A stretch of DNA of 61,553 nucleotides, the filler included, from Hausera hauseri (taxonomy: Eukaryota), in the NCBI GenBank assembly GCA_046269625.1. It is 9 parts of 9 records of this genome, joined end to end, with 100 filler letters (N's around TTAATTAATTAA, not from the genome) between each part and the next. Parts side by side here need not be neighbours in the genome. Positions count along the whole stretch, not along the records: positions 10,938 to 17,574 come from JBJURY010079769.1; 8 more parts are not named here. One strand, given 5' to 3'. Within the stretch, counting starts at the first letter, position 1; each line of letters opens with the position of its first letter. The notes beneath the pieces are model-generated. The model was not told where the DNA came from. It worked only from the letters and a program-made list of their open reading frames with translations, and ran no database searches. Of this stretch, positions 1 to 50,900 are shown piece by piece. Both the position numbers and the translations under genes were made by a program.

Positions 1-564
1 AAATGTTATTTGTAGAAGTGGTATTAGAAGATTTCCTTGCCAATTATTTGTAAATGCATTAAAGTTATTTGAGATGTTGGAAAATTGACGTTAATGCATT
101 GTAAATATTATGTTTATATCTACCTGCTACTATATAAGCAGAAGGCAAAAGAGAAGAGATCAGAAACAAGTTATCAACTTAGGTTCGCAATTATCAACTC
201 TCTGTTAAAGACTTATTGACTTTCTTGTGATCGACATTATTGATATCGTGTGTGGGTGAATAAAGGTTATTACTATCATTGTTGTGTTGTAAAATCTATA
301 GATTTTCATCGTCTCTAAAAGACGATTTGTACTCCACTAAGGTTAAATTATCACTTAAAATCACAGTTAAGACAAGATTTTCTTTAATTTGAGGCAAGCA
401 TCTAAACGCACGCAGTATTCGCAATTAGCTCAAATTCTTGTAAAATATTAAGGCACAAGCAGATTACTAGGAGAACGAGTAATCTTAACCTGCTGATTCA
501 GCGATTAAAACTCGGAATAATATTGTTTTATTGGGAGAAGGTAAGGACAACCCCAACTGTAACA
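1..564 (+). repeat. 5' LTR (family A, 5'-truncated) of the contig-1 Gypsy element
   Basis: Ends in ...CCCCAACTGTAACA just before a PBS; TATATAA at 131-137 and AATAAA at 259-264; homologous to the reverse complement of 28705-~29260. Confidence 0.85.
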
Positions 565-568
565 TACT

Positions 569-586
569 TGGCGACCCTAGAAGGAC
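569..586 (+). promoter_or_regulatory. Primer-binding site, probably tRNA-Arg type
   Basis: TGGCGACCCTAGAAGGAC 4 nt after the LTR end; near-identical copy (TGTCGACCCTAGCAGGAC) on the - strand at 28084-28101. Confidence 0.8.
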
Positions 587-941
587 AGTTTGTACCTCGC
601 TAGACTTTACTCTTGAGAAACCAATTAACGAAATACCGGCGAATAGCGCCATTTACATCAAGTAATTGATATAATGAGAATCGAGAATTAAAATTTGGGA
701 TTATAAGTTGATAGAGGGAATTAACTAAATTGAATTGACAGCAAACATTGATAGACTTAATTTGAATCAAAATTCATTACTAAACGGTCAAAAGGAATTT
801 AATAGAAGAGAAACATGAAATAGACTTTATACTGAAGATAAGATAATAGATAAGCACTATCTGTCGGATGCCGAATTAAACTCTGTTAGAGAATTTAAAG
901 TTCCTCCTAAAACTAAGATAGACAAAACGAATAAAATTAAA

Positions 942-2022
942 ATGGCAGCAGATAATCCTGCGATAGCTCAGAAACTTGATATATTCACGTTCGACTAGTT
1001 AAATTTACCCGCATACGACGGTGACCCAGACAGATTAAATGACTTTTTACGAACTTATAAATTTCACTCAGAAGGTGCCAGCCTTGCGCCCGAAGTTATC
1101 ATTAAACGAATGTCTTTATATTTGAAAAATCTGGCCGCAGATGTCTATAGTGAACTTACTAATAATGAGAAGAAATCATGGTCCTCTGTAGTAGGAGTCC
1201 TAAATCGTAAACTATTGCCGACAGTCACGCCACAATAGAAGCCTATGGCCTTCCAGAACAGAACACAATAAAAAGATGAATCGGCTACTCAATTCGCTTT
1301 TGCGTTAAAGAAACTTGCTAATAGTTATGTAAGCACAATAAGGATAGCTAACGCGTCATAAGCCAATACAAATGAAGAACGTGAAGCGGCAGAAAAGGCT
1401 AGTCCTCCAGATTTGGATGTCATGATGACAACGCAGTTAATAAACGGTATATGGTCTATGGATTTACTTAAACAACTAATTTTGGCCCGACCAGACAATT
1501 TCGAGGCGGCATTACAATTAGCTCAAAACTTGGAAATGGCATTAGATAGATATGCCAGACAGAATGAAAGTATGACCGAATAATGATCGTGACAACCGAG
1601 ACAGAAACCGCAACAATAGAAGATTTAATGAAAATAATAAGGACCGAAGCTATGAGAATAGAGTTCAAAACCTCTCCAATCGCAGCACGAGATATGACAA
1701 TAGGAACTTTAATGATAATCGGAATATATATAATCCTTATAACAAAACAGGTTATAATCCGGATAGAAACCAGAATAATGACCGAAGTAATAAAAACCGA
1801 TATATAGATAATCGGAGTTTTAAAAATAGAAATAACTGATTCGATAAACAAGCTCAAGGCAAAACAATTGGTAGACCCAAATCACCAGTAAATGAAGATG
1901 GAAGACAAAGGATTGGTCGAGACGGAAATCTAATTTGTTATTCATGTGGTAAGGAAGGTCACATAGCTAGATCATGCCCTAATCCACGAAGTGTATCATT
2001 TGCGGAGACTAATAATGCTAGC
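942..2022 (+). pseudogene. gag: Gag (capsid-like region, N/R/D-rich linker, CCHC zinc knuckle)
   Basis: AQKLDIFTFD*LNLPAYDGDPD... aligns with the open Gag at 27051-27820; CYSCGKEGHIARSC at 1936-1977; several nonsense codons and one indel near 1575. Confidence 0.85.
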
Positions 2023-5000
2023 ATGATAAAGGATAATTTGGAAGGAATTTACGGGAAACGAGGTGATATAAGCATGATTATCGAGATGCAAGACTTACGA
2101 AGATGTGTAAGAAATATGGACGAATCTAATAATCCACAAGTAATCAAGGCTAGGAAGGAATACAAAGAGAAGTTGCATCAAATGGAAGTTTATCATGGAT
2201 TAAGAAAACCAACAACAGAATACAAAAAGGCTATAGCGCCCAAGAATACTAATATGGCCAGAAAGAAAAACCTAAATCCAGTGGCAAAGCCAACTACGCC
2301 TCCAAGCTTAGATTTAGATGCAGATACTAAGGTTGCGCCTAAAGATAAGGACAAAGCAACAAATGAGGTTGAAAGCGCATTCATTGGCCCACTGATACTT
2401 AATATAACGAAAAATAGAGGTAAAAGCCCCTCTCTTAGGAGAAGGTCGAGAACTCGTTCACGATCACCTACCATAAAGGATATAGAAAAAGCGGAAGATT
2501 TCACTATCACTCTAAGAGATGAAACAGAGTTAGACACTCCGAAAATAACGAACATTCCGAACATTAATGAGATAAATGAAATATGTCCGTTACCATTTAC
2601 TGAGGAGTCAAAAGAGGAAGAGTCCATTAAATTTACAAAGATCAGAAAATCTTGGAAAAATGCAAATGATCTAACAGAAATAAGAGACACTTTGAACGAT
2701 CCCGGAAGACTAACTGAGAGCTTACAAAAACTGCAGCAAATGAGCAAGCAGTTGGACATCTCAGGAAAAGAACAACAATTCATAGAGAAGTTATATAAGA
2801 AGTTGAAAACCGACATCCAGAAAGGAGAAGAAGATATACGGTATAAACTGCACGAAACGTCGCAAGATTTGATAAGAACTTGGCAAAATAAATTAGAACT
2901 GTGGACAATGAATAATATTGATTTTACGAAAATATGGTGGAGTAAAACTGAACCGTTTCTCGATCAAATTAATCAAGCGCAAGGATTGTTAAACACACTA
3001 AAGGGTAACCCAAAATTAAGGCGCCTAAAACGTAATTTAAAAGGATTGATGCGTGAGATAGAAGAAGCAATAATTTCTTATCTCCATAACAAGGCAGTTT
3101 ATAAACTGACAAATACAGACCTAGAAATACTGAATATAGACCAAACAGACATTTTCTTTCTATTGGAAATGTGCAACTTAATAAAGCATAAACCTCAGAA
3201 ATATCCAGATTTAAAATTACGTATCGGAAAAGAAAATGAAATATGAGCCAAAATTAACGACTTAAAGATCGGGATAGTGAACGTTGAAAACATAAAACTA
3301 AAGAGAATAATATACGCTTGTCTACTCGAGTTAGATGAATATAAGGAAGAATTCAACTACACGAAACAAATCATAGAATTTGTACGAGGATCAGATCACG
3401 AACTAAAGGAGGCTTTTGAGACTTTGGGCGAAATTATATACGCCAAACCAGAAGTATCTGAACAATTAAAGAAGTGGATAAAATTGTTACTCTCTATAGG
3501 CAAAGTGATTAATGAACGACTAAGGGAGTTCGCAGTGGTTGAACCTATAATGAAACACCAATTAGAAGAAATGCTACTAGATGTCGGCACGATGGAAGAC
3601 GAAGCAAAATTGCGAATTAAACTCGAATCATTTCGAGAACTTCAGTTTATGAATAAGGAGCAGGATATGACAACACTAACAGAAATGTATACTATGATAG
3701 AAGAGAAAGACTTCTACAGGAAAAGAAACAAGTTAAGTGATCTTCAGCGAAGTTTAGTAAACATCCGTTGGGAAGGAATACATAACTTAATGCAAAAACC
3801 GTTAAAGGAGATCTCGGTACAAGAAATAGAAATATTAGAAGTATGTAATGACCACCGGATTGCTCTCGCGCAGACACTGCAATATATACAGAATCCAGTT
3901 GAATGGTCACCAGGCTTTGACCTACATTGCCATTCTAAACTAACGGAAATTAGAAATGACCCACAACTGACAAGCAATGAAGCCCAATTCATAAGTAGGC
4001 TGATGGATGCAATAAATCCAAACGCCGAAGTGTTAAACCAAACGTATAAATTAATCTCACTATTGACAGAAATGGCGGAAATTGACGAAGGAATAGTGAA
4101 AAGATTGACAAATCGGATACGTCTGATAAAAGAAACCCGGCTACGTTCTGAGAAAAGACGACGCGAATTGAACGAAATACTAAGAGAAACAAAATTTTAT
4201 AAGAATAAATATTCCCTCACGGAATCAGAATTGATTGATAAACTAGAATTTGTACAGAAATGGCAAAGAGATAGAATATCCGAAGTAACTAATTATCAAG
4301 AAAAAGCTTTGATACAACCAAAGGTAATGTGTCGATTAATAAAACTGATACAACAAGCTTGTGGAAACGGTGATGGATTTAGGGTATCCATCATGAAAAC
4401 TCTACAACCGCAATTAAGCGAATTACGAGAAAGAGTTCAAGTTGAACATGCGGCACTAATGAACTATAAGTTACCTGGCGTAGAAAACGAAGCCGACTGG
4501 GATGAATACCTCCAAGGTCTAACCGAACAAAGTCAAAGAATTCCAATACATATTTATGAGTCACCTACTGGTGCACAGAAGACAAAATTCGACGTGCAAA
4601 TGCTGCTTGATTCCGCATTAGCTGTAAAGGAATTAAGCAATGTATTGAAAATAAACATAAGTGAATAAAAGTTGAAGAAATTGATTCCAACCTTAACTAA
4701 GTTATCCAGTAAAAACACTGCATATAGTGCAGTAACTAAACTTCTAATAAAAGAATACGCTAAACTATTGAAAAATAAACCAGAAGCGTAAATTAAAGTA
4801 AAAGTATCATCGGAAATAATGGACGACGAGGAATTTCAATGTACCACCTATACTACCATTGGGGATATAAAACAATAAATAATGGATAAAGATAATAGAA
4901 AAGAAGTTAATTATCGACTACATTTCAGAGGCAGAATATTAGATGAGCCAGAATTTCTAATAGATGTATGGATTATACCCCTTGAAGAAAATCCAATAAT

Positions 5001-5460
5001 AGCAGTTATCAACAGTGAGCAGACTAAAGACAAAGCCATAAGAAAGGCACATACAGAACACTGTTTTGGGAAAATTATGGGAATTCAGGATGCCGCAATG
5101 TACTTTGAATACTTACAGGCGGATGATGACAAACTGCAATACGATAAAAATTTGGTCCCGCTGAGTGTAACCGTACCACCAGTAAAACCAAAACGGCCAG
5201 TCGGAAGACCAAGAAAAATAAAAGAAGTAGATTATAATGCAGATTTGATTAGGGAACTGAGACAACTATCAGTACCTACTCCGAGCTCAGATAACGAAGA
5301 ATTGATAGAACTAATGAAAGATTTAATTAGGATAGTAAACTATACCGGACTCCAAGGCGACATATTGTCCGAAAAAGAAAGATTGATATATAATATAGCA
5401 CGGACCATGAAAACTTCAGATTTAAATGATTTAAAAGCACCCTCCCTGACAAAACAGTGA
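2023..5460 (+). pseudogene. ~1,100-aa charged, helical/coiled-coil-like region of unknown function, in frame with the Gag zinc knuckle
   Basis: ORFs 2023-3246, 3277-4668 and 4882-5460 share one frame with the knuckle and are separated only by single stop codons; rich in E/K/L/I/Q. Confidence 0.7.
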
Positions 5461-7552
5461 TTGACAGAATTATGACAGATAATACAACGGAAGAATTAAG
5501 GAAAGTCCTGATATATTTGGCGGTAAGAACTAACCCTCATCGAGAAAACGAATTTGAAAAGACAATTGGATTGGCTAGAAAAGCTGCGAGAAGAATACCT
5601 AAAGAAGTAAAATGGACTAAATTGTTTGAAAAAGAGGAAAATGAAAAAGGGAATAAGTTAGAAGATATGATACGAAATATCTGTTTAAATATAAGCAATG
5701 AATCCAACTGGTTAGTCAATCTACTAACAATAATAATGCTAGTGCAACAGCTAGGAGCAGTCACTATCTACGACTGTGATAAATTTAAGATGGATCAAAG
5801 ATATTCTCTAATGGATCTGAAAGCGTGTGAAGATGCCAGACCACACAAGTTAGAAACAAGAGAAAAGAATTACTTCCTATATCAGCAACAAGAACTGATA
5901 TCGCTAGACGGAATAGAATGTATGTTACGACGGTCCCGCAGTATTTTTCATTGTGGATTAATACACAAACATTCTTCCATAATCAAACCAACAACTCCTC
6001 CAATTCATATGAATTTGGAACGACAGCATTGTAAACAGGCTAGAGAGACTGGAAGAGTACAGTGGGATAATATGGATTTAGAAATGCAAGTTGGCAAAAT
6101 TATCAGGGCATATAAAGTGGTAGCTGGAAAGTTAGGCATGCATACGGGACACTGTAATGGAGCGGAATATAATACCGGAAAAGGGATAGAACCAAATATA
6201 GTAGTAGTGGATTTCTGCGAATCAAAAATGAAATCACAAAAAGCAATGTTTCATAGTGTCACCAAATTATACACGGAAAACCAGAAATGCCATGTACAAG
6301 ATGGAACCTGTGCTTTTAGAAGCTCGGTTATAATATGGGAACCTCCCTCAGGAAGAAGCTGTAATTTTATTAAAATAAAAGAACTCAAGTTTAATGAGAC
6401 CACCGGAAAGAGATACGTGGATAAACTAGATACCAATTCAAGGACACGCGAGGATGTATTAGAACATCCGACGCCCACCATATTAATCTCCGATCAACAT
6501 GGACTAAAGTTTATTAAGAAGGAAATGATGTCACGTTGCGATGTGGTAATGTTTGCTACTAACTACGAAGCATTCTTCGTAGCAGAAACTGAAATAAATG
6601 CGAGAACTTATCCGTTAGAAACACAAGATATCAGGATTGAGGACTACCTGAAGAATAGAAACGATTATTTCTATTACAAAGGACAAACTGGGATAACTGA
6701 GTTGTGCCACAAAATGATAACAAATGGCTGTAAGTTGGATACAGAGATCATGAGGACAAAACTGGCCCTTATATATGCCAACCAAGAACTGGCTTCGCCA
6801 ATAATTCCTATGAGAGAAGGAATTTTTAGTTGAGTCACAGGTGAAGTATTACTAACTTACGAATGTGAAAAGAGAGATGTATTCATCAATGTAGAAAAAA
6901 AACGTTGCATCCAGGAACTTCCAGTTATTTATCAAAACGTTCCCAGATTAGCTACACCACTGACAAGAGTATTATTAGATAACGCAACCCAACCTACTGT
7001 TCTTAAAGATTGTAAAGCGAGTTTAAGAGAACCCATGTTTAGGCTGGGTCAGCTTAACAAATGGAGATATTACTGCTACCCCAAGTAAATTGACTTGAAC
7101 AAATCTTGCGAAAGGAATTACAGACGATAAATTTCAAGACACCTCATCGAAAGGCATATATAGGCCTAAAGAGATTGAAGAATTTAGACAATTTCTCGCT
7201 TTTCCGTGACAGCGAACGCACGAATTAAATCGAGCCATGGCCTCGGTTGTAGACGACACACGATATCAGGCTAAATGGGAATCCCTTCTTGGTGCTAATC
7301 ACTATCAGAGTGACGTCAGAAATATTGTATAAGATTTGGGGAAGATTTTTAATTTTTGGACAAGCTGCATCGGGATTCTTAGCCATCTACTTCTTAGTAT
7401 AATTAATTAAAGCCGTAATACAAACTGTTATAAACGAATATAAAATATTCACATTGACAGGTTTCTCCTGTAAGATTATAACTCCAATTATCACCCCTTT
7501 TGGAAAAATGCTTAAAGCGTACGAAGAAAATCGATGGAAAAATGATGTATAA
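5457..7552 (+). pseudogene. env: Envelope glycoprotein, chuvirus-like (class III fusogen type)
   Basis: Internal signal WLVNLLTIIMLVQQLGA followed by VTIYDC; ECMLRRSRSIFHCG, VAGKLG...HCNG, VTGEVLLTYEC...RCIQELPV...TPLTRVL; membrane region IWGRFLIFGQAASGFLAIYFLV*LIKAVIQTVIN. This Cys/motif pattern is that of chuvirus-type glycoproteins. Stops and frameshifts after 6833. Confidence 0.75.
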
Positions 7553-8146
7553 CGTCATGTTAGATATTACAATCGCAAAGGAAGGGGAAGACCCTCGATT
7601 CTTAATAAACGCAAAAATAAAAAGACAATAATGCGGAAATACGACTTAGATGATGACGAGCCTAAGGGAGGAGAAGGAAATGCCAGAATAAAGTTACACA
7701 GTAAATATGTACCAATACCCATCATGCTACCAACTGCGCCGATTTACGAGGACTGCGATCAAAAGTCAGTCATATCCTACAGATCTGATACCTATCGAAC
7801 ACCTATAGACTATGAAGACCCTTATGGAAAAACAAAACAATATGGAGTATTACGGAAAATGGACGTTATCAACAAAGGACTAGCAAAAAATGACCACGGA
7901 ATATTATACTCGAAAAGGATACCTTGTCACATAGAATCGAAATCAACGATCTGGGAAAACTCGAAGTTATGCTCAATCCCAGGTCCTTTACCTCAAGAAC
8001 CGCTCATCGACTACCGCGTCACGGAAATAACAACTAATGATTTGTACCCGAATGGAAAATTATGACAATTAAGGCAGGATATCATTTCATCGCCTGAAAT
8101 AACGATAAATGGACATAGAATCTCCACTATAAAACGGTCCAAGATA

Positions 8147-8520
8147 GTGTCAAATTGCTACGGAACAGTAGCAGAAGGAAGACCCTTCGCCAAAATACAC
8201 ATCGAAGATTGGGAAGTGTATGCGTTAATCGACACAGGATCAGAAAAATCGTTTATAAAATATGAATCGATCCTAACCACATTGCTAGACCAACTATGTC
8301 CATCCGCATCATCGGACCTAGGCAGCGTAGGTGCATCTGGACAGGTATCAAAGCTGAAATTTAAGTAGACTCCTACCGTTTATATGATGGGCCAAGCACT
8401 TCCACATGAATTTGCGGTAATTGACCAATTAATAGACGATGTAGTACTGGGTTGTGACGTATTAAAACTGATACCAGGTATGGCAATTGATGTGCTTAAT
8501 GGAAAATTAATTAAGCTCTA
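8147..8520 (+). pseudogene. Retropepsin-type aspartic protease
   Basis: VYALIDTGS (D at 8231) and downstream DVVLGCDVL; one TAG at 8366. Confidence 0.85.
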
Positions 8521-9039
8521 ACCAATAAAAGGGACAAAAGTAATAAAGAAAAGGAAATCAGGCGAAGTATGGATTCCAGTAGATGAGGACATTCTGCATA
8601 AAACTGAAATGATAATTTTTGCACAGATTCACCAAGACGAAGATCTACCGGTATATTTCGAACCGCAACAGAATATCGATCCAAATCTCATGCTTAGTAA
8701 TATTCTATGTAGAGTAGTGACGGGACGAAAACCAATCAGATTAGTGAACAGTGCACCAACTCCTATACGATTGCACGCTAACACTACTCTAGGTCACACT
8801 TGTAGAGTATCGGCGGTAACAATTAATAAAAACCACACAAGTGCGCTGAATTTCCGCCTCATGTTGAAACCAAATTCTCTCCAGAAGCGTATTGGAAGTT
8901 CTACGAATTATTATGTAAATACAGCTCAATAATTGCGCAAAACAAAGAAGACATAGGTAGAGCAAAGGCTGTAAGATTAAGTATTCCATTAAGGAAGAAA
9001 CCAGACTCAAATGACGAGATCGATCTAGAAGAACAAAAA

Positions 9040-10837
9040 ATGCCAAAGTGGTACCCGCCTCCTCATTCATTGAGACCGGAGATAACTAAAGAAGCAGAGC
9101 GAATGTTAAAGGCCGATATAATTCGACCAAGTTACCGATCATGGTTCTCGCCTATAATCATGGTTAAGAAAAAAGGAACTACAAAACATAGGTTTTGTAT
9201 AGATTATCGCGCATTGAACACGTTGATGATGAAAGACTCGTTTCCATTACCGTCAGTAAAAGAAGCTTTAGATAGACTATCAGGAGCAAAATGGTTTACC
9301 ACTCTCGACTTACAATCGGGATACTGGCAAGTGGAAATAGAAGAAGAAGATCGATATAAAACAGCGTTTAAAACGCATGATGGTGTATACGAATTTAATG
9401 TTATGCCTTTCGGCATCACTACCGGACCAGCTATCTTTACTAGAATGATGAATAAGATGCTCATGGGACTTGATCATGCTTTCGCGTACTTAGACGACGT
9501 GATGATAGCATCAAAAACAGAAGAAGAACATTTAAAGGACATTGAAGACACGCTTATGCGATTAGAACAAGCCGGATTAAAACTAAATCCGAAGAAATGT
9601 AAATGGGCACAGAATGCAGTCTCGTACCTCGGACATATAGTTGGAGAAGGAGGATCAAAACCGGATAAATCATTGTTAAATAAAATATCAGATTGTATAG
9701 AACCACAAAACCAAAAGAAGTTAAGGCATTGGTTAGGCCTATGTGGGTGTTATGGCACTTACGTACCAGATAACTCAAAAATTAATGCACCATTATATCG
9801 TTTACTCAAAAAGGGAAATAAGTGGAGATGGACAGAAGTGGAACAAAAAGCATTCGATGAAATGAAGAAGGTTCTGACAAGCAAACCAGTTTTAAGATAT
9901 CCGGACTTTAACTTACCATTTATTATTAAAACAGACGCAAATAAAGAAGGCATAGGATACGAATTAACTCAAAAACGCGAAGATGAAGAATTAGAACATC
10001 CAATAGCTTATGGCGGACGCTGATTAAAGAAAGCAGAAAAAAATTATTCGGTTACCGAACTGGAGACATTGGCAGTTCAGGAAGCACTACGACACTTTAA
10101 TGTCTATGTCTACGGACAAAGGATTATAATAGTGACGGATCACAAAGCAGTTACAACACTAAAAGGACGAGCTAATAACCCAGCATGCAGATTAAACCGT
10201 TGAATAGAGGAAATTTCACTATATAACATTGAATTTCAATACAAACCGGGTAACAAGCACGTCGACGCTGATGCACTCTCAAGGTTAAAAACAAAACGAG
10301 TGCGATCGCTACATTTAAAAGACCACAACTTGCACAGCTGATTGAACGACAAAGAACTCTAATATCGGAGAAGACAATTAGAATTACAGCTGAGCAGGCT
10401 AAAGATACGGTTATTTAGCAAATTATTGAGTTCGTACAAAACGACAAAATACCAAAAGGACGGCAATTGAAAAAGCATCTACAGAAATACAAACATAAAT
10501 ATCATGTATCGGATCAAAATAATATTTTGTATTAAGAAAGAAAAGGAAAAAGACTAATAGTTATTCAAAAGGGATTGCGTGTCGAAGTACTTACGGCCGA
10601 ACACGATTCATATTTAGCCGGACACATGTCTTGGAAGAAGACATTGGAAAGGACACTAAATAAATACTATTGGCCAAGCATCTATATTGATGTAAAGAAT
10701 TGGGTAGGCGCATGTGAAGTTTGTGCGACAAAACAAAAGAAGACAAAGGGCTACATAGCAGAATTAAAACCTATAAACGTACCAGACAGGCCCATGCAAG
10801 CCATGTCTATGGATATAGTAGGACCGTTGCCGAAAAC
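9040..10837 (+). pseudogene. pol: Pol: reverse transcriptase, RNase H and integrase N-terminus
   Basis: RFCIDYRALN, LDLQSGYWQV, MPFG, YLDD (9487), KTDA, NYSVTELE, VTDHK, ADALSR, H-x6-H...CEVC, SMDIVGPLP; internal TGA stops. Confidence 0.95.
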
Positions 10838-10937: not shown

Positions 10938-11602
10938 TTCTCTCCAGGTTTTTTGCCATTGGTGCCAGCGCTCCCAGCTCCATTGTAGTTAGCTTTGAAA
11001 GGCTGCTCGGCAGAGTCTGTACCTGGGCTCACTTCGGAGGCTTTACTGATTGGCTTCACCTCAGCATAAGGTCCACGTGGTTTACCAGGAGCTGGGATTC
11101 GACTCGGCTTACCCATGTTTGAAGCTACTGCCGGGAAGCCAAAGGATTTGGGCTTACACTGGAATAGAGACTGTTCTGACTTTGAAAGTGTCCGAGACAG
11201 AGGTGGTCTCCCGCCACCTGCTTGACCTGCCTTGGTCTGTCCGGCTTTGTTTGACCCTGTTCCAGGACGGCTTGCATCATCGTTCCATCGAGGGGATTGG
11301 TACAGGTGCAGCTTCTTCTCAGCGTCGGTGAGCACACACAAGTTGCCAAGTGACCGCTGCTTGCGGAGCCTGGAAGGATTGTGGACTGGAATGGGAATAG
11401 ATCCAGAGGTGGGCCGATACACCTTGAGCTCTGACCCAGAGGGACGAGAAGGCCCCTGGGACAGAGCGAAGGCCTTGACCTGTGGCTTCTTGGAGGCCAT
11501 GGCCTGGGTTGAAGTGTCCTGGCAAGAGACAGCAGTGGACCTCAGGTCCAGCTCTCTGGGCTTAGTTGTCATGCTAATGTTAGCCACATTAGCCTCCAGC
11601 AT
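10938..11602 (-). CDS. nav1: Teleost neuron navigator 1-like N-terminal coding exon (fish DNA; 3'-truncated)
   Basis: LRKQRSLGNLCVLTDAEKKLHLY, PLSRTLSKSEQSLFQ and GKPSRIP...GPYAEVKP match vertebrate NAV1; acceptor ttcctacag just upstream (exon starts 11607); much higher GC than the rest of the window. Confidence 0.85.
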
Positions 11603-11899
11603 CCCTCCTGTAGGAAGAAAAGCAACAGCATCAGTCATCCACCAGAAATGCACACACACCAGCTGATTAAAGGAACCAGAGAAAAGAAGGGGACAAAGAA
11701 ATGCGTAAAGACACAAAGGCTGACTGGTTGTCGCCCCCTTTTACCCCAGGGTCATGACTGAGTGAGCCAGACTCCCTGCAGTGTGAGACTGTGGGTTCAC
11801 TTCTTTGCTAAAAATGATGAGTGGTGTTAGTAGAGTGACAGTCATACTCACTGCTGATAATCCATGGATTTGCAGATCCCTGTCCAGCACCAAAATCCA

Positions 11900-12786
11900 G
11901 GGATACCAAAATTTAAAAAATTAACGCATTAACTCAAACAGACGTTATAAACATGACCGGTAGCAAGGTATCAAAAAGTATAATGTGCAGATTGTTCAAA
12001 AAGGCCGGAATAACCCGAAAAGTTCTGAAGAAAGGGCCGAGCATTGTTGCTTTCAGAATAAATTATATGGAGCGAGTAAGATTAATGAACTGGGTAAATT
12101 TGGCGGTCGGTTACTTGTATTCTTGGATGAAACAGGATTCAACCTCCACATATCGCAAAACTACGGTTATGCAACATGCGGACAGAGAGCAGTGACATCA
12201 CGGCCATCCAATCGTGGAAAAAATATATCAATGATGGCTCTGATCAGCATAAATGGCTTGGTGGAATACGAGCTGCTGGACAGTAGTTACAATTCTGGAT
12301 CATACGTTGAATTTTTGGAAACCGTACATAAAAAAGGAGGCTGTTTAAACAATCCGATTTTGATACTGGATAATATAAGGTAATTCGTTTAATAAGAAAT
12401 AATTTACTAACCAAATATAACAGGTTTCACACATGTTCTGATGCTGAAAATCGGCTATTCCAATGGGGCGTACAATGGGTATATCTCCCACGATATAGCC
12501 CCGAATTCAATCCGATCGAATATTTGTTTTCGGAAGTAAAACGGAAGGTGGCGTCTCAACGGCCAAAAGCAACAAACAGAAATGACCTAAAGGTGCTTTA
12601 TAAATATTTTATTTTATAGTCCAACCTTAAATTTAGGATCTACTGCGAAGAGTTATGAAAACGTATTTCAATCACTCGATGGCTGGGTACTACAGCCACT
12701 TCGAAAAGATGCTGATTAAATATAAGAAAATTTTCACAGTCACCGAAATTACGAATGCAGACTGCGACAATGTAAATATTGAATAA
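11900..12786 (+). mobile_element. Tc1/IS630-family DD34E transposase, 5'-truncated and frameshifted, with two 44-nt introns
   Basis: FLDETGF, LILDNIR|FH and LPRYSPEFNPIE; splicing GT-AG introns 12380-12423 and 12593-12636 restores the frame to TAA at 12786. Confidence 0.85.
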
Positions 12787-13149
12787 AAATTAGATTTCTA
12801 AGTTGCGTTCGTCTTCAATGTGTTAAAACTGGAATATTCTTTAAAATTCCACAGTAGTACTTGATAAATAGTTAAAAATTGAACGGAATGTGTGTTATGA
12901 ATCTAACTTTTTATATAGTAATTTTCATACAGTATAAAATTATACGTACTTAAGATTTTTATTCACGCAAAAATTCTTCATATAAAATAGTTCTTTAATT
13001 TAATATATTAGAATAATTCCTTTATAAAGTATTATCTAATTTGACTTTCTTATTTTAATTTAAATAGTCGTTATTGGATAATTCTACATTTATTAATTTG
13101 CACACGTTAATTTAAAATTTTCATAAGTGCGCATATTTCAAAATTATTT

Positions 13150-14175
13150 TTACAGAAATGAAGTATTAAAATTATGTAGTATAAATGAAAAATTTAAACA
13201 AAGTTTTAAAACTACATCGAAATTTACACACTAACACCAAGGTCACAGTATAAAATTTTGATTTCTTTGCACAAGTAGGCCTTCACTATCTATGGCAGGC
13301 GCAGTAAATGATAATTATTGATCTATATAGCCTATTTATGACTTAAATACACATACTGATACATACATGTTATTTACTAAAATTTACCATTTAATGATCA
13401 ATTAAAGTTACTTTTGGGTATACCTAAAATAACAAATATTGTCTTATAAGATTAAAACTCTTGAATTCTAAGGTTAGACTCAAAATGGTAATTAGTTCAA
13501 TGTTTCACGCAGAGATCTTCACAATAATTACCATTGACAACATACTTATTGTACAGCAAGTATTATAAATGTTTAAGAAGTACATCAATTAATTCATGTT
13601 ACAAATAATATTACAAGAAGTATAATAATTGGAACATTTGTACAAGCATTGAGGATCTATCGGTTTCACTTGATAGCATAGAGAATTGCACATTTGATAT
13701 TGGGAATTACACGAAGCCTGGCAAGCATTAGAAGTCACTTCTTGAATGATTACTGAATTCAGAAACAATACTGCTATCTAACAAAATATATAACCATTGA
13801 TTTTGCAAAATGATCAATACTAACGAAAATGAACAACATTGTTTGTAGGTAATAATTAAGCCACGTACGCCGTTGTGACTTATATAAAATGTTGCAGTTT
13901 AATTGTTATGTGAATGAGACTGATGCTAACAAAGTTTGAAGTTCATCCATTAATGTTACTAAAATATGATTTATCAATAAAATATACATACAACTAACAT
14001 GAAACTAATTTTGTCGTAAATTTTATTCCGATTGGCTTCATATGTTTGAGTTTCACTAATGTCTACACCAATTATTTTCACGGCATATTCATGAAAATTG
14101 AAGGTCATATGACCAGTTCCACAACCAACCTCCAAAATATGGAGGTCACTGAATGACATGTTAGTTTTACCAATC
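13150..14175 (-). pseudogene. Class I SAM-dependent methyltransferase gene with short introns, 5' part cut off by an LTR
   Basis: Motif I HILEVGCGTG and motif II IIGVDIS; short GT-AG introns downstream; downstream exons appear to contain stops; 3' boundary approximate. Confidence 0.6.
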
Positions 14176-14966
14176 TGTAAAAGAAATACCTCAATGAGGC
14201 CGATGGATTGCAGTTAGACCAGAATGACAATATTGATAAGTTTATAGGCGAAGATTTATTGGTCTTACGACCCTAAACTTATACTCTTTACTTAGGACTA
14301 AATAGAGTCTAGGGTTTCTCCTTCCCTCTAGACCTGAAATTAATTATTCTTATAAGCAACCTGTGGGGTTGCCTCCAAGTCTTATTTGACCTTAATGTGA
14401 GAACCGTTCAGGAGGAACACTGACGGTTTATCCCTTACTTAATTGATTTTATACCTCCGGCTAATTACAGGGCCGGATACCAAAAAGGGATAATATTTTA
14501 GGTTTATTAATTATACCTTATTACTAAACTTATTTAAAATTATCTATACGTAAGACAGAATTAATGATTATGAATAAAAATATATTGTGAGTTATTAAAT
14601 AGACGAAAACAACTAAAATATGACATACAAATAAAATCAAAGACAAAATGAACCAAAAAGCTTACACGTATTGTAAAGATGAAGCATTGACATAACGCGT
14701 TGAATACTCGATAGTTGTTAAGTGATAAATGATTGAACATACAAGTATTTATAGTAAAATATTGCTGACACCACTTTAGGAAAAATTTACATACCATTAA
14801 AATAATTCGTTGATAAACAAAAATCAATTTAAACATAATTCAATATAAATTAAGTCATATTTAATTTCCATATAAGTTATTCTTATAATTCGACGGAAAA
14901 TCAATTTGTATTGTCAACAGTTCGGGGAATTGTTTGTTATTTGTTCTGGAGTTCGATTACTGCACA
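14176..14966 (-). repeat. 3' LTR (family C, ~790 bp)
   Basis: TGT...ACA termini; preceded on the - strand by the polypurine tract AAGGAGGGAGAAGA (14967-14980); other end abuts methyltransferase coding sequence. Confidence 0.7.
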
Positions 14967-17574
14967 TCTTCTCCCTCCTTAGATGAAGCTGTCCACAGCT
15001 TCAAGGGGTAGGTTTCTAAGGTACCATTCGAATACTTGTAATTGGCGGAGTCTATCCGCAACCATTGATTCCCTTTTCGGATCTTCTTTTTAAGAGTGAC
15101 AGTTTCTCGTGTAGATCTCTTTTTCTTAGTAGATTTTGTTAAATCCACTAGTATCGGTTCATTAGAATCGGTGGTGGGGGATGATTGACTGGTAGTCGGT
15201 TGGTTAGAGGCAAACATTGTAGACGTATTATCAATGTCCATTGATTCACATTTGGAGTCTTCTGTGAGAGCTAACGTCAGGAACTGTTCGTTATCAAGTA
15301 CGATTTCGCTTGTGATTGATTCTGATTGGTTTGGTTGGATTTGAGTAGATAGTTTCTGAAGGTTTCCCTTTTCGATCTTATATTCGTTGATACTATTGTA
15401 AATTTTTGATATTGTCGCCGTCTTCTCTTTGGTCCGCAGAGGGTATACGATGTTGTTGTATTTCATTAAAATTTGTTTATAGGTCAATGTCTTATCTGGA
15501 TTTATTTCTGGGTGATGTAATAGATCTCTAATTCCTAATACTGAATTAGTATCAAAAAGGTCGAGATGCAAATTCGTATTATAGATATCAAGTCCGATTA
15601 TCATTTTTCCATTAAGCTTCTTTCTGATAAGGGATCTGATTTGGTAGGCATCTGTTTGTCCGGTTAAGTCTGGTTCTTTTAGTCCGGTAATTAGACTGTT
15701 ATAATTATCTACTCGTTCACGCGGAGCGACGAGCTTGTCCAATATAATGTTTCCCTCTGAATCTGCAATGGTGATTTCTATAAGGGTCATTTCTTTGTTA
15801 CGCAATGGAGTCAAGAGGAAGGCAGAATTGGTCGCCAATATGACCATCTGATTTTTCGATTTTATCGGCAATCTAGAGAAAGAGATCCCAGCTACAAGTA
15901 ACTCGCGGTTAGGTAAATTTGAGGGATAAATTGGCTTTTCGTATTCAATTTGTGGGAGGATTTCTCTCCTCGTAACTTCAATGTATATTATTGGGGACGG
16001 GCCGCCAAATGTTCTGAGGATGATCGTAACGTTTCTGTAAAATCTCTTATCCAGGCGGATTGTAGTGTAAGCTGTCACATCAAGAGTATCGGTGAAATCG
16101 TTTAACTGGGCTCGACTTTTTATCTGAAAGCTTCCCTTTGCAACTGATATATAAACTGATGTCGTTTGACTGGAAATGTCAATTAGATCAGACAGCTTTG
16201 TAGACGCGGCTGGTAATTTCATGATTAATCCTGATCTCTGATGGAGAAGATGACCTTTAAGGTTGTTCGGAATAAGATTTACCTTTCCATAATAGGCATA
16301 ATCTTTATTGTCTGTCTGGTTCAGGTTGTTAATGATATTGTAGTAGAATGACTTTGTTCGGTCCACAATTTCTGATCCTTCTTGAACTAAAAGGAAATAG
16401 GTGAATGTTAACCAAAAAGATTTGAGGAAAGGGATATAAATATAGATACTTTTATTAAGTTTATCACTCTGATACGCCGCGAGAAATTTAGTAACTCTAT
16501 TCTGTATCATTGTACAGTAATACACTGTTAAGTCTGTTGGTCGACAATCTTGTCGTTTATTTATTCGATTTTTATTGTTAAGAGGAGTTGATGGGCAATC
16601 TTGCCATTCGGGTTTGGCCGGTTCTTTGACCGATAATTTCTTTATTAACGGACGATTTTGCCGTATAGAAATTTGTGGAATTTCATCATTAGACGCACTT
16701 ACTTCTATTGTTTCATCTTCCCTTAATAATTTTAATTGGTTTAACATTTGTCTTATTCTATGCTGTCGTCGCCTCATTTTTGAACAATAAATTACTAAAG
16801 GTAAGAATATGGCTAGTAATATTAAGAAAACAAATAATACACTAATTATCCAAAGATTTTTATTCGTAGTTAATTCTGGTTTTTGTGTAGTTACTCTTCG
16901 TATAATTTTTGGGGTGGTTATTGTTTGCTTTAAAGTCTTTTCTGTACGAGAAACTGTTCGTAATTTTTCTCCTTCATCATCTAGTTCTATTATGATGACT
17001 TTATAGTTTGTATCGGCTTTTAGGAACATACATGCAGATGTCGGTTCTTCAGGAGTTAAAACTCCTTCACTAATCACTCTGTGGTTGAGATAGCACTCGA
17101 ATTTTATATTTGTGTTCTTTAGATCGGGCACTGTAATAACTAGTGAGTGACTTGTTGGTTGGATAATTATATCCAATTCTTTAATATCTTTCTCAGGTTT
17201 CGTCGTGGAACTGATTGCTATCTTATGCGGTATTGTTGATATACTTGATTGTAAAGTAATTATTCTTTTTGTTGTAGTGGGGATTATTTTTATCGATGAT
17301 TTCGCTATTATCTCTGGACCATCTGCTGTTCTTGACCATGTATGACCATCATTCGTGGTCCAATAGTATATAGTATACTGTTTATCAAAAATGATAGGGC
17401 AACATTTATATGGGTCTTGATAGTTTGGTTCACAATGTATACTATTATTTCCATCAAATATTATATACTTGAACTTTCTATACCTTGTAATTACAATATC
17501 TGGTTCCGCTGTTACACAAGGTCCGTTCTTCATGACCTTAGTATAAAATGAAATAAGAAAGTATGGTCGATGAA
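14957..17574 (-). CDS. Retroelement 3' accessory ORF (>858 aa, open to the contig edge): FN3-like domains, Thr-rich stalk, TM helix, degenerate REX4/ISG20-like DEDDh exonuclease fold
   Basis: LKADTNYKVII (FN3-like); LWIISVLFVFLILLAIFLPLVIYC (TM); VILATN...EITIADSEGNIILDKLVAPRERVDNYNSLITGL...MIIG...GIRD (REX4-like); stop codon lies inside the LTR. Confidence 0.7.
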
Positions 17575-29363: not shown

Positions 29364-31437
29364 GTCCTCCCTGAGCGGCATCCTCGAAGTAGCCCATTGC
29401 GTCAGAAGAGGTGGCGCCCAACGTCCTAGGCCGTCTTAATCGATTCATTCTTTCTGTGAGGTCTGTTGGGAAATTTCGTTGGTCTTGACTGTTTATTGGG
29501 CTTGTCTCCAGGTTATAACTATGGTAAGGTTTGATCCTAACAATTCGTGTGTAGCTCCCGTCTGAATAATACTTCAACTCTGTTGCCTCTGCGCGACATA
29601 CTGGCATGTCGTTTTTCCGTTGTCGAGTGTCCATTTTTCCAGACAATCTCGGCAGTATTTGTGGCGACAATCGTGGTTATCTAATACCACATATCCTTGC
29701 CTTAAATTTGCGTCGCACACAGGGCATTCACTATCTTCTTTGTCCCAATCATCTCTGTCTAAATCGACTTGAATAGTTAGCTCGATAGGTTCAAATACAA
29801 GTCCATCTTCATCTTGGTATAAGTATCCATGTATCACCTTCTGTTTGGGGTTAACTGAACTCTTATGCGGGTCACAATTTACTTGTATCAAGGTCCAATC
29901 CGCAATAAGGTCCTTATCCAAGTCGGGAATCTTTCCTTCCGTTTTATATTTTTGATATTGTTTCTTTAGTAATATTCATATTTGCTTGTCTACGGGCACT
30001 ATTATCTTACCAGTTCTCTTTGAACGGAAAATCGATGTAAGATAAGTACCTGGAGCAAACTTGATGAAAAACATAGCTTCTTTTATTACCTTCTTACTAT
30101 AGTGCTCGGTAGTTACCAACATTTTAGGGAAATCTTGGGCTGTACTGCAATGTACGTCTTCTTTTTTCCTTTTTCTATTAGGGCAATGATTTCCGTTATT
30201 ATGGGACTCCTAATTCCCTTTTTTAATGGTTCTATACTTTGAGAGATACTCGGCCTGTTTTGTTGGCTCTGCGCTCCTTGCTTCATCTTCCTTTTTCTTC
30301 TTGAATAAGTAGTTGTAAATAGATGATGTCTTCATGGTCCGGGGTTTTTCTTCTAACTTCGTCTTTTTAATTATTGTTTCTGGCCTAGGTTCTTCATTTT
30401 GTTCTTTTTGGGACTTTGATGTTCCTGCTAGTGTCCTGTTTCCTCCTTTAATCATCGGTAACTCCATCTCATTTTTTTGTTTTCCTTCCATAGGTTCGCG
30501 GATTGTGATCATAAGGCGATGCTTGTCTGTAGATTGGATGGTTCTAATCGGAGAGTAGGGCTTGAAGGTTTTCCGATATTTGATATCTACATGTTCGGTT
30601 TCCAAGGAATTGCGTAGATTGTATATAGGGTTTTTAGGTATCCATTCATGTTTTCACTTTAACATCTTATAAGTCTCCTGCAAATATTGGGAACGCTGGC
30701 TGGCTGTTAAAAGTCTTGGAATTCTATTTGGGTTGTTGGTCATTGTTTCAACTGTTATCTTGAAGAAGGCTTCTGGTGCGGTTAGTCGGTTTCTTCCTTG
30801 TACGATTTTCTCCATTTGCTCTTGGACTACTGGATGGGTGGCTATTTCCCTAAGTCCGGCAATATTTGCATCGGATATTCCTAATAGCTCAATTTCCATT
30901 TTTACATTGTATCCTGTTATCATACAAACATAAAGACAATAGCTTAACTCTGAACGGACCTGTAGAATATCTTTTCCATTTATCAGTTGTTCTTTCCTTA
31001 GACCAGTCACTTCCGCATGTGATTCCTGAACATGTTTCCGAGGGTTTACAATTGTTGAGTATAATTCAGTCTCATCTCTTTCTCGAATAGATACTTCCAT
31101 CGGTATTCCATATCCATCGTCTCCTCTACCGTAGTTTGTGGCCAGGATCCTTATGTTGCGGCCGTCTTGGACTAACCTATACGATTGCAGATGTTCATCC
31201 TTTTCTGCCTCTGTTGGTCTCTGTTCGAACTGTAGAACCGACAAGCCTAAGTTGCAGCTCTCTTTGTAAGTCATCTCGAACATCAGTTTAACCGGTAAGG
31301 CTGCTACTATGAATTCTAATCCATAATCGATGGCTTCTAAGCCTCGGCCACTTATTTTAAATGTGGTAAATTGGTATTGGCGCCTTTCGTTACAGTCCCA
31401 TTGCTGTCCCTTTATTCTGTAGTAAACTTCGCCGTCG
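29359..31437 (-). pseudogene. Family-A 3' accessory ORF: degenerate REX4-like exonuclease fold, Lys/Glu-rich linker, C3HC4 RING finger
   Basis: ORFs 30654-31283, 30210-30605 and 29574-29921 share one frame separated by single stops; RILATN...EVSI...IVNPRKHV...VTGLRKEQL; CPVC...CRHKYCRDC...C(fs)PVCR; ends inside the LTR. Confidence 0.7.
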
Positions 31438-40329: not shown

Positions 40330-40931
40330 TTTTGAGGCCAAAAGAAAATTTGATGTTGAGGATAGATACTGGCGGGAATCATGAATATATTGGAAATAAG
40401 CATCAAAGAATCCAATATAGGCACCATATCATTTGTCGATCCAAATGGTCCTGACATTTTAGTATTAAAATCCGATTTTGGTGTGATTACCTCTGTGTAT
40501 GAAGTATTTGTTGATGTTTATGAATCACCAGAATTGGAATGTTCTCTTATAACTAAATTAGCCGTATTGTGATCCATTGACAGAATATTCGATGACCGAA
40601 GATTTACAATTAAGGAAATAAATTTTTTAGACGCTCCTTCAGCAAACCCTAAATTGTTGAGTCTTTCTTCATTTAAGGAAAAGAAATCTCCAATAGTAAT
40701 GTTGTGTAGATAGGAATGATATTTGTGAAGTCTGGCATGTTTTAACCAATCCAGAAAATTTCCCATATGTAATTGTGAATATTTCTGAACATCTATGGAT
40801 GTATTTGGTTGTTCATCATACGGATGATCCATGGTCTCAATGATTGCTTTAGCTTTGATATTAATTGAGGGGTTTTCCAGTATTGTGCTTCTAGATTGGC
40901 ACAACCAATTCTCTGTCCTGCGGTTTTTTGG
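40330..40931 (-). pseudogene. Smaug/SAMD4/Vts1-like RNA-binding SAM-domain gene fragment interrupted by an LTR
   Basis: DWLKHARLHKY...LNEERLNNLG...GASKKF matches the Smaug SAM signature; in-frame stop at 40518. Confidence 0.65.
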
Positions 40932-41159
40932 TGTTACATCGGTATTCTGAGTACGGAAGTGGCATTTACGTGCATTGACCTTCAACGAATCAGTTTTAGA
41001 GATGCCGTTAAGTTTTTTATGATCTTCTCGTCCCATCCGACGGATTAAATTCTTAGAGCGAAGAGTTGGACCCGACTATCGATCCGACGCGACGATAGTG
41101 GACGCCCGGCCTTGCCCAACAAAATGAGCCAAAGGGCACCGGCCGCCATGGGCACCACA
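40932..41159 (-). repeat. 3' LTR (228 bp) of a CsRN1-like Gypsy element
   Basis: TGTGGTG...TGTAACA termini; PPT GGGGGGAGGG at ~41163-41172; start resembles the LTR at 26762. Confidence 0.75.
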
Positions 41160-47983: not shown

Positions 47984-50900
47984 TTATTCCAAACGCCAAT
48001 GTCCGGACACCCAACTCGTAATTCGCCCCACCTACTTTCGCTTATCATCATTGCATGATAAAGAGACTTTTGTATTGATCACCGTATACAGCTGGTGCTC
48101 AATTTATAGGATGATCGTTTGAGACACAACAGCCTTTGATTGTCCTCCTTCAGACACGGCGAAAATCACCATGGTTTATTTCCGTCTGGGCCAATTGAAC
48201 TCCTTTGGCGCCCATTTTCGATCCACCATCAGTTAAAAGACTATAACATTTTAACCGTAGAAACATCGATTCCCGATACTGAACCAGACTTTCACTTTCA
48301 TCCTTAAAGCAGCCGATTTTGTTTGTGATAGAATTGCTGTACAACGGATGATCTGGTGAATAGTTAGACGTATCCAGTAATCCATCTGACTGCATTTGCT
48401 GCAGTAGCTGTTTGCGATTGACGTTTTTCAGCCGCAGGAAAAAACTCTGTCACCGGCAATTATGTCAATATTGCAGCAGTCAAATATTTGCCAGTAATGT
48501 GCCAAGTCCCGATACTGCAGCTCATACATCCGCAATTTGCACAGGTCAAATACCACTTGTCCAATGTAACTTGGCCAGTCTAGAACGACTTCTTCCCTGT
48601 TTAACAGCACCGCAACCCATCAATCGGCAATGTACATTGACCGCCGAAACTGTGCCTTACTCGTGTACGTGGCCAACCGCTTTTCGCCATTGCATAGGCG
48701 TACATTGAGCCGCTTTTTGAGATTCTCTATTGTTTTTCTGTATAGGAAATTGTTTTTCAGCTTGTAGTAGTCCTTTTCGAACTTCGTACAAGCTGCGGCT
48801 CGTTTTTCCGAATTTACATATATGTACGCCTTGAATATGGGAGCCTGAGCAAATTGGATTCCACGATGTAGCCGTGTGACGCGTACACCGAGTTTCTTGT
48901 AAAATTGTAAAATACGTTAATGGACAACGTAATTCAGCTTCGGTTCATGCGTCATGAGCAGTTTCTTCACTTTTAAGCCTGGCGGACATTGGTTAAATGG
49001 TGCGACCGGTAAATCGTCCAAAACGTCATGCAGCTCATCTGGTACAACGAGATCGACCTCCATCAAGTATCCGACTGAGCCTGCCATGTCTGCTCGTGGC
49101 AGGTTGACCATTATGTCGTTCAGATCTTGTCTGTCGACTACATATTCAAATGAACCGTACGACAAGGGTTACGAAAACGTTCAGCAGTACAGTTTATTAA
49201 TATCAATATGCAGCAGTGATGTGATATCGGTAGCACTGACCTGATTCTTGTTTACAAACGCCATGCCGCCGCGAATACCAACATCAAACATTCGGTACAT
49301 TTCCGGGTCTTGCGGCAGCTCAATGTCTCGATCCAGTGACATTAGAGATGACGCCAAACTCATTCCGGGTATGAAATAAAAGTTGAGTGGCTCCAACCTA
49401 TCTTCCGCTAGGGCTTTGGTCCGAAATGCTTCGAATACGTAGACTAATAAGTACACGTCCAGTTTGAGACACTGGAGCATGTAATCCAACATGTTTCTAC
49501 AGCCCAGTTCTACCCAAGATTCTTGTGCTCTCCGATAATCATCTTCTGCGACACCTGTCCATCGCGGCGGTAATTCCTGTGTCCGGAGTCGCTCATATGA
49601 TGTTGTAAAGTCATATTGAAATATGCCTTTGCTGCGTGCAATATGTGCAGAGAACTGCGTCAGTGCTATCGGCACATCTGGCAAGGCATTCACCAGCTTT
49701 GCCAATGATTCATTGAGAAATTGCAATAAATCAAGGAAGTGTACCTGGAATCGGTTAACTCGTGCCGACAGCGATAGGTATTTCTCCATTGTCGTTGAGA
49801 TTATGGATAGTTCCCAGTTCGGAAAGCCGTTAATGGCTCATTTGAGAATGTGGTGACAGTCATAACCTCGGAAAATATGAAAGATCACCGCCAAGAATGG
49901 TCGCACTCGCCTTGCTAAATTGCATGCTGCTCCCAAGTATCGACTGATGAAATGGTCGTGATCAGGTACGAGCCGTTCCTCTGCATCAAACTGTATTATT
50001 TTGTGGCACAGATAGCATTCATCGGTGACAGCGTAAAGCAACGGTTGATATTTGTCTGCCAAAATCAATGGCTTAATGCATTTGTTGCGATACCACGGCG
50101 CGATTTCCGTTTCTACTATGGTTTCAAACTGCTGCACGAAATCACTTAAACAGTTCCAGCCATGGAAAACGTAATACTGAGATTGTTCGGCGGCTTTTAT
50201 TGGTACCAGCAAAATACCGACAGCAATTGGAACGTGATTTTGATCGTATACATTGTGCCGTGGTAGAATTTCTTCGATATCGGCATACACCACATGCCGG
50301 ACTGTCCGTTTTTGATCAGTCACTGAATCTTAACTACTTTTTGACTGGCATAACATACGTTGTAGTTCTTGACGAAGTTTGCCTGCACAGCGCTACATGC
50401 TGTTCCCATGTCTCATTTAACCGGAATCAATGCAGACACACGGGACAACATTTGCACCGTATACGCTTTTTGATGAACTGGTCATGTTCCATGTTCAACA
50501 ATCTGTCCAAATTGGTCACGGCCCTGTAATAAAATTTTTCTTCATTCTCGAACAGTAACAAATTTACTGGGTATCCAATTGGATTTCAACTACGGTAAAA
50601 TATGTCCACGTGAGGATTCTTGTAAATTTCCTCATCCACCAGTATGTCTACAATTGCGTTGAACCGGAACACGTTGATTGCCAGCGTCGGATTATGCCGT
50701 TCAAAAGCCAGAATGGTTTTGCGTTTCATCGGCATCCAACACTCGTCGTAGACCAATTCTGAGAAATTCTTACTTTACTGCTTTGGACAATTTGCACGAT
50801 ATCTGGATACTTGATCATATTTCAATATAGCCAGAATGCGGTAAATAAAGCAGTATTCGTCGTTAGTATTTTGTACATTCACTACCACCAGAGACAGCTT

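Follow-up and report, generated by a model that had tools for sequence, protein, structure and literature searches.

The placement of env before pol has been published for the gB-type GAG-ENV-POL Ty3/gypsy errantiviruses of Nematoda, Bryozoa and Platyhelminthes (Chary and Hayashi, PMC13524379), and in the giant planarian Gypsy elements Burro/GYPSM1 one giant polyprotein carries env in frame between gag and pol (Arkhipova and Yushenova, PMC6431247). The cargo of the latter includes RING, Smc, MATH, BIR, ankyrin, BCL2, SUMO and dUTPase domains. In bdelloid rotifers, ORF3 of the Juno and Vesta elements encodes a DnaQ-like exonuclease between pol and the 3' LTR, and such ORF3s are typically spliced (Rodriguez et al., PMC5408684); the same paper notes that dead DEDD proteins act in piRNA pathways, a parallel for RNA binding without cutting. 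In Phalaenopsis, Ty3/Gypsy elements carry an AlkB ORF whose product has m6A demethylase activity and is similar to plant enzymes (PMC9289625). The Drosophila surface protein Sas targets vesicles and binds to the Arc capsids derived from Gag (bioRxiv 10.1101/2022.09.06.506798). Outside Drosophila, little is known about how enveloped retrotransposons of invertebrates select their target cells or escape RNA surveillance by the host.

The stretch of DNA analysed here (the window, 61,553 nt) consists of nine contigs of a repeat-rich eukaryote with N linkers between them. Analysis of the contig at 10938-17574 revealed 871 uninterrupted codons on the minus strand (14957-17574), which are the longest frame in the window, as the initial annotation had stated with more than 858 codons; the runner-up has 473. 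Openness of this length is expected by chance at about 1e-27 at the ORF's composition. The frame is truncated at its 5' side by the contig end (17574), and since no signal peptide follows its first Met (residue 14) we placed its start upstream of that end. No env, pol or 5' LTR was found on this contig, in agreement with the earlier remark that pol lies outside it. Judging from the frame and from the layout of relatives described below, the ORF is probably the tail of an env-pol polyprotein at the 3' end of an env-before-pol element, and its sequence makes better sense as a joining of two accessory modules that the relatives keep apart.

The ORF ends in a Ser/Thr-rich and then basic C-terminal tail (14960-15358, minus strand), which runs through a polypurine tract of 14 purines (PPT; 14967-14980, minus). 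The tract adjoins a 791-nt TG..CA segment, the 3' LTR (14176-14966, minus), with an AATAAA poly(A) signal at 14260, and this succession identifies an LTR retrotransposon. The positions of the frame and of the purine tract confirmed the claim that the ORF reads through the PPT and stops 8-10 nt inside the LTR. By its own account, the initial annotation would have been contradicted by an unrepeated segment at 14176-14966 and an ORF that is a single-copy host gene. No second copy of the LTR was found within the window, but the public runs contain many divergent contigs that cover the LTR and the ORF, so a single-copy host gene is refuted and the element context stands. In run X1, 2339 contigs align to 10940-17570, only 391 of them at 99% identity or more, and the summed depth, which is not a copy number, is 374-9820 in the ORF bins versus 4-6 in the flank (13382-14047); run X2 showed the same pattern, weaker. 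Joints in the public-run contigs revealed other LTR copies that skip about 250 or 465 nt of the interior. Copies of the element differ by 5-15%. Among the best-supported 40 of 895 variants, 13 of the 23 differences within the ORF are synonymous (33% expected, p 0.018); the one indel in that set is of 3 nt, and one difference, at 16872, would be a stop codon if standing alone.

The first part of the ORF product (residues 1-395) is a membrane module, for which the predicted type I topology holds up. Residues 1-92 (17297-17572, minus) form a Cys-containing, beta-rich ectodomain piece whose FN3-like nature has no statistical support, and residues 128-212 (16937-17191, minus) form a repeat homologous to five repeats of two related loci, L001 and L004. 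A T/S-rich stretch at residues 93-130 and a Thr-rich membrane-proximal stalk at residues 200-237 (16862-16975, minus) correspond to the Thr-rich stalks reported initially, with 29-34% T+S. One strong transmembrane (TM) helix follows (residues 242-260, 16793-16849, minus, hydropathy 3.22), and then the basic stop-transfer motif KMRRRQHR (16757-16780, minus), both as first annotated; L001 has RRRRR in the equivalent position. The TM helix is the only confident portion of a single-sequence AF2 model of the whole ORF (pLDDT 35), and a Foldseek search with this low-confidence model returned nothing informative.

Two FN3-like segments had been proposed, and one of them was recovered. We built a profile from the five L001/L004 repeats, with the query left out and bounds chosen by eye, and its top match in the six frames of the window is at residues 145-196 of the ORF, on which the link between residues 1-395 and the relatives is based. 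None of 2000 shuffles of residues 120-215 scored as well against this profile, whereas 1017 of 2000 shuffles of residues 1-110 scored equally or better, which leaves the first segment without support. The best matches of the profile in the PDB were fibronectin type III domains, at a sub-threshold E of 0.024, and the Atlas FN3 clusters, which rely on language-model features and serve as a lead only, gave 0.87 for the ectodomain. Pfam fn3 had no match in the ORF, and no confident ectodomain model was obtained. The repeat at residues 128-212 is likely FN3-like, with fibronectin type III as its best label, below threshold. Direct searches with residues 1-400 found no homolog, including a word-indexed one among shorter proteins, and when residues 1-395 were compared directly with the polyproteins of the relatives, the match was not significant. 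Pfam fusogen models had no match in the ORF, while PF24664 detects the env of the contig at 1-10837.

A protein search of 1.84 billion representatives gave 46 matches, all within residues ~400-810, with residues 1-395 left uncovered; the best ones, stand-alone proteins of 350-590 aa, cover residues ~400-730. We aligned 26 of them with the query and a second ORF of the window (alignment A1, 28 rows), leaving out the other 20 (fragments, exonuclease-only and cellular REX4-like proteins), and AlphaFold (AF2) with the family alignment predicted two domains at pLDDT 88. The first (residues 396-537, 15962-16387, minus), overlooked in the initial annotation, is an AlkB-type double-stranded beta-helix in the predicted structure, and its best match is ALKBH6 (7vjv_A; VIA Z 12.5, rmsd 3.0, 140 aligned). 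The AlkB-type subfamily is not fixed, because prolyl hydroxylases are close behind (Z 11.5). The HxD/E...H iron triad is absent, and the one His conserved in the family (23 of 26 rows) is Ser476 here. Comparison of this domain with E. coli AlkB by hhalign was not significant, and the likeness to AlkB, which comes from the model, is structural only.

The second domain (residues 575-738, 15359-15850, minus) is predicted to adopt the ISG20/REX4-type DEDDh exonuclease fold, of DnaQ-like type (ISG20, 1wlj_A; VIA Z 18.0, rmsd 2.4, 159 aligned). The catalytic residues D, E, D, H and D are all replaced (A580, N582, T666, L712, K717), so that the pseudo-exonuclease with a REX4-like fold announced initially was borne out. 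All five residues are kept in 19 of the 28 aligned rows, and the other nine members are dead with intact frames. A quick tree of the family, in which long branches meet, requires three or more separate catalytic losses, and the query is itself a long branch. A hydrophobic segment ahead of the module occurs in three of the nine dead members and in none of the 19 intact ones (p 0.026, post hoc). No fused relative was found by a word-indexed search of longer proteins with the family alignment, which is a weak test, and the same kind of search among proteins of near length returned nothing. DNA scans with the ORF detected no relative in viral, metagenome or genome contigs, and viral contigs gave no match to three family subgroups or to the RT of the contig at 1-10837.

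A metagenome scan with one family subgroup identified four loci, two short ones with the gene alone and two long ones, L001 and L004, with gag outside both. The long loci are giant Ty3/Gypsy elements with a single frame of more than 3000 codons, which encodes, in this order, a PF24664 class III fusogen (E 9e-84 and 5e-94), protease, RT, RNase H, integrase, a hydrophobic signal, repeats, stalk, TM and stop. Their membrane module, in frame with the integrase, comprises a pair of beta-rich repeats and a stalk rich in Thr, and ends with a TM and a short tail. A separate, catalytically intact AlkB-like/exonuclease gene follows 960 and 335 nt downstream, respectively, and in L001 a PPT and TG start come after it. 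Both modules are therefore found downstream of integrase in two relatives that carry a fusogen. This layout speaks against the env position assigned initially to the ORF, which is probably not an env substitute: in L001 and L004 the fusogen precedes pol, whose polyprotein has the membrane module as its in-frame tail. We also observed an extra signal-repeat-stalk-TM module in L004 (4090-4750), located between duplicated aspartic proteases; protease stretches number three in L004 and two in L001. Small coiled-coil-like accessory ORFs are present beside the exonuclease gene (L001:9207-9875, L004:11571-12008), that of L001 with its ATG directly after an acceptor-like AG.

We give about an even chance to the following reading: the ORF is the 3' frame of a multicopy retroelement, with a surface module and two dead domains, likely as the tail of an env-before-pol Ty3/Gypsy polyprotein, in which the surface module is the attachment or targeting partner of the fusogen and the dead domains bind RNA. 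By analogy with the relatives, it is quite probable that this copy has its own env and pol upstream and that an internal signal sequence is the point at which the module separates from the polyprotein. The surface module would then be displayed as a type I membrane protein and would be the attachment or targeting partner of a separately encoded fusogen. At the inner membrane face, RNA would be bound but not cut by the two dead folds, AlkB-like and ISG20-like, which in this way would tether or shield the element transcript. A soluble or shortened form is probably made possible as well by an internal splice acceptor. Herpesvirus class III fusogens depend on partner proteins, and because of this and of the fusogen kept in the relatives, attachment or targeting is the first-choice role; a function as adhesin is our preferred inference for the surface module. 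Taken together, attachment and the tethering or shielding of element RNA without degradation, read from anatomy only, are possible but rather doubtful. It is unlikely that these elements represent a clade of enveloped Gypsy elements with a class III fusogen, an FN3-type attachment protein cut from the pol end and a repeatedly dead AlkB-like/ISG20-like RNA-handling protein, the last two being fused here in a way that would link the cell surface to element RNA at the budding site.

Alternatively, the fusion may be incidental or optional, with a short-tailed membrane protein and a spliced, soluble AlkB-like/pseudo-exonuclease whose frame is merely open across splice signals, a reading that we regard as rather doubtful. 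The second hydrophobic patch of the initial annotation is weak (hydropathy 1.49) and coincides with the strongest splice-acceptor-like tract, and the description of the ORF as intronless is doubtful for this reason; a second TM at residues 375-396 was rejected, since the hydropathy is weak and the pyrimidine tract explains the patch better. The tract consists of a branch-point motif, a pyrimidine tract and AG (16387-16431, minus, codon 396) and is the best of 74 acceptor-like sites in the ORF; only 36 of 2000 codon-shuffled ORFs hold one as good anywhere. Stand-alone relatives begin at this point, which is why the fusion may be optional. In L001 the best of 64 acceptor sites is 2 nt before the exonuclease ATG, and in L004 this ATG directly follows an AG. 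A motif scan found only one GT(A/G)AG donor-like site in the ORF (codon 291, 16697-16702, minus), 316 nt upstream of the acceptor, and removal of the span between them would shift the frame. In X1, two contigs of low depth lack 322-324 nt that almost coincide with this span, though their bounds are not exact splice sites, and one branch-point position differs, towards the usual motif, in all covering X1-X3 contigs. Use of these signals in splicing could give either a membrane protein with a short tail or a soluble module. However, some 130 codons between the TM and the acceptor contain no stop (chance probability 1e-4, and 0.03 for the final 50 of them), and after the acceptor there is no in-frame ATG until inside the AlkB-like domain. 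The six differences at codons 359-388 among the best-supported 40 of 895 variants are three synonymous and three conservative changes. An accidental fusion is further opposed by the synonymous share of the ORF differences in that set (13 of 23) and by the hydrophobic N-termini of the dead members (3 of 9, against 0 of 19 intact ones).

It is improbable that the ORF is a third, stand-alone reading frame with a product that takes the place of env as the sole surface protein and acts as a decoy or superinfection-exclusion factor. Both functions had been suggested initially, and no observation here favoured them. The ORF fills the slot before the 3' LTR, no env of this copy is seen on the contig and the type I topology is compatible with such a role, but the lack of a signal peptide after the first Met (residue 14) indicates that the frame begins upstream, and where relatives have both modules, a full fusogen is retained and the membrane module is in frame with integrase. 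Equally improbable, or slightly more so, is a decaying relic whose enzymes are dead and whose frame survives through the youth of the copy; the loss of all catalytic residues, the long branch of the query and the stop-like difference at 16872 are consistent with decay, yet the copies differ by 5-15% with the listed changes leaning synonymous, the fold is predicted at pLDDT 88, and intact frames are kept by all nine dead members among the 28 aligned, for which the quick tree requires three or more independent losses. It is very improbable, and largely refuted, that the ORF is a domesticated or single-copy host gene for a receptor beside a solo LTR, since the resemblance of the ectodomain to host FN3 membrane proteins in language-model features stands against many divergent copies, a stop codon inside the LTR and homologous modules within Gypsy elements.

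Compared with the described systems, the element backbone is already published, while the two modules are apparently undescribed and their fusion is possibly unique. L001, L004 and the contig at 1-10837 have the class III fusogen upstream of pol, as in the errantiviruses of PMC13524379; the main text of that paper has no occurrence of exonuclease, nuclease, AlkB, fibronectin, FN3 or accessory and describes no post-integrase membrane module. Burro/GYPSM1 shares RING cargo and the possibility of accessory ORFs as polyprotein subdomains, but the cargo listed in the text of PMC6431247 includes no FN3-TM, AlkB-like or DEDDh module. According to PMC5408684, the Juno/Vesta ORF3 is RNase D-like DEDDy, catalytically intact and without a TM, in elements without a true env; the ORF, in contrast, belongs to an ISG20/REX4-type DEDDh family, with its His, and not to the rotifer DEDDy ORF3s, and its exonuclease fold is dead, joined to an AlkB-like fold and linked to a membrane by the TM. 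An AlkB-fold accessory gene in a large Gypsy element is shared with Phalaenopsis (PMC9289625), whereas here the domain is without the HxD/E motif and fused to an exonuclease fold. In the sections surveyed, neither PMC6338049 nor PMC12440569 describes a membrane or AlkB-like/exonuclease module. In the published texts that our literature survey covered, neither the AlkB-like/ISG20-like pair nor an FN3-like membrane module after integrase is reported. Sas, which presumably carries FN3 domains, offers no more than an analogy: it is a surface protein with one membrane pass that directs vesicles loaded with capsids to cells; as described, it is a host gene without enzyme-like cytoplasmic domains and with no homology shown to the ORF. 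If the attachment reading is true, virus-like accessory genes, and possibly split fusion/attachment machinery, extend to Ty3/Gypsy elements. Besides env, these elements provide a candidate attachment protein and a two-domain putative RNA-acting protein with natural active and dead versions, and the membrane and two-domain modules are each small enough for separate assay.

Other contigs of the window carry related elements. On the contig at 1-10837 (plus strand) lies a gag-env-pol Gypsy element in decay; its env is a class III fusogen (PF24664), and the stretch from gag to env includes about 900 codons without an explanation. The ORF's LTR did not match the LTRs of the window's env-pol elements, and this contig was rejected for now as the ORF's own 5' part for lack of an LTR match. 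The gag of the contig at 27051-32270 (minus) is 68% identical to that of 1-10837, and a second dead family member, P0002 (30654-31517), lies there before its LTRs. The two contigs repeat the association of such elements with the family seen in L001 and L004, with LTRs unlike that of the ORF. P0002 is within a 1234-nt tandem duplication, which is followed by a broken RING ORF (29577-29975) and then by two LTR-like units, a PBS-like tract and gag; this contig looks like a junction of tandem or collapsed elements. Fragments of a protein-primed-type B DNA polymerase (PF03175), Polinton-like, were found at 49181-50329 and 58815-60674. An origin of the ORF as Polinton cargo was rejected, with these fragments on other contigs and the relatives being Gypsy elements.

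A low-copy methyltransferase exon (13977-14213, minus) is located directly at the LTR end, which indicates that the element lies in or beside a host gene. Further along the same contig are a high-copy repeat (~12716-13381) and a fragment of a DDE_3 (Tc1/IS630-type) transposase (11964-12616, plus). At 10938-11899 a coding piece of 53% GC, which we take to be vertebrate neuron-navigator-like, is joined to AT-rich DNA; the piece recurs in contigs from runs X2 and X4, whose sequence diverges from ours at 11899, and the boundary is either a chimeric join or a pick-up of host DNA. Additionally, a divergent SAM-domain frame, presumably Smaug-like, is present at 40518-41075 (minus).
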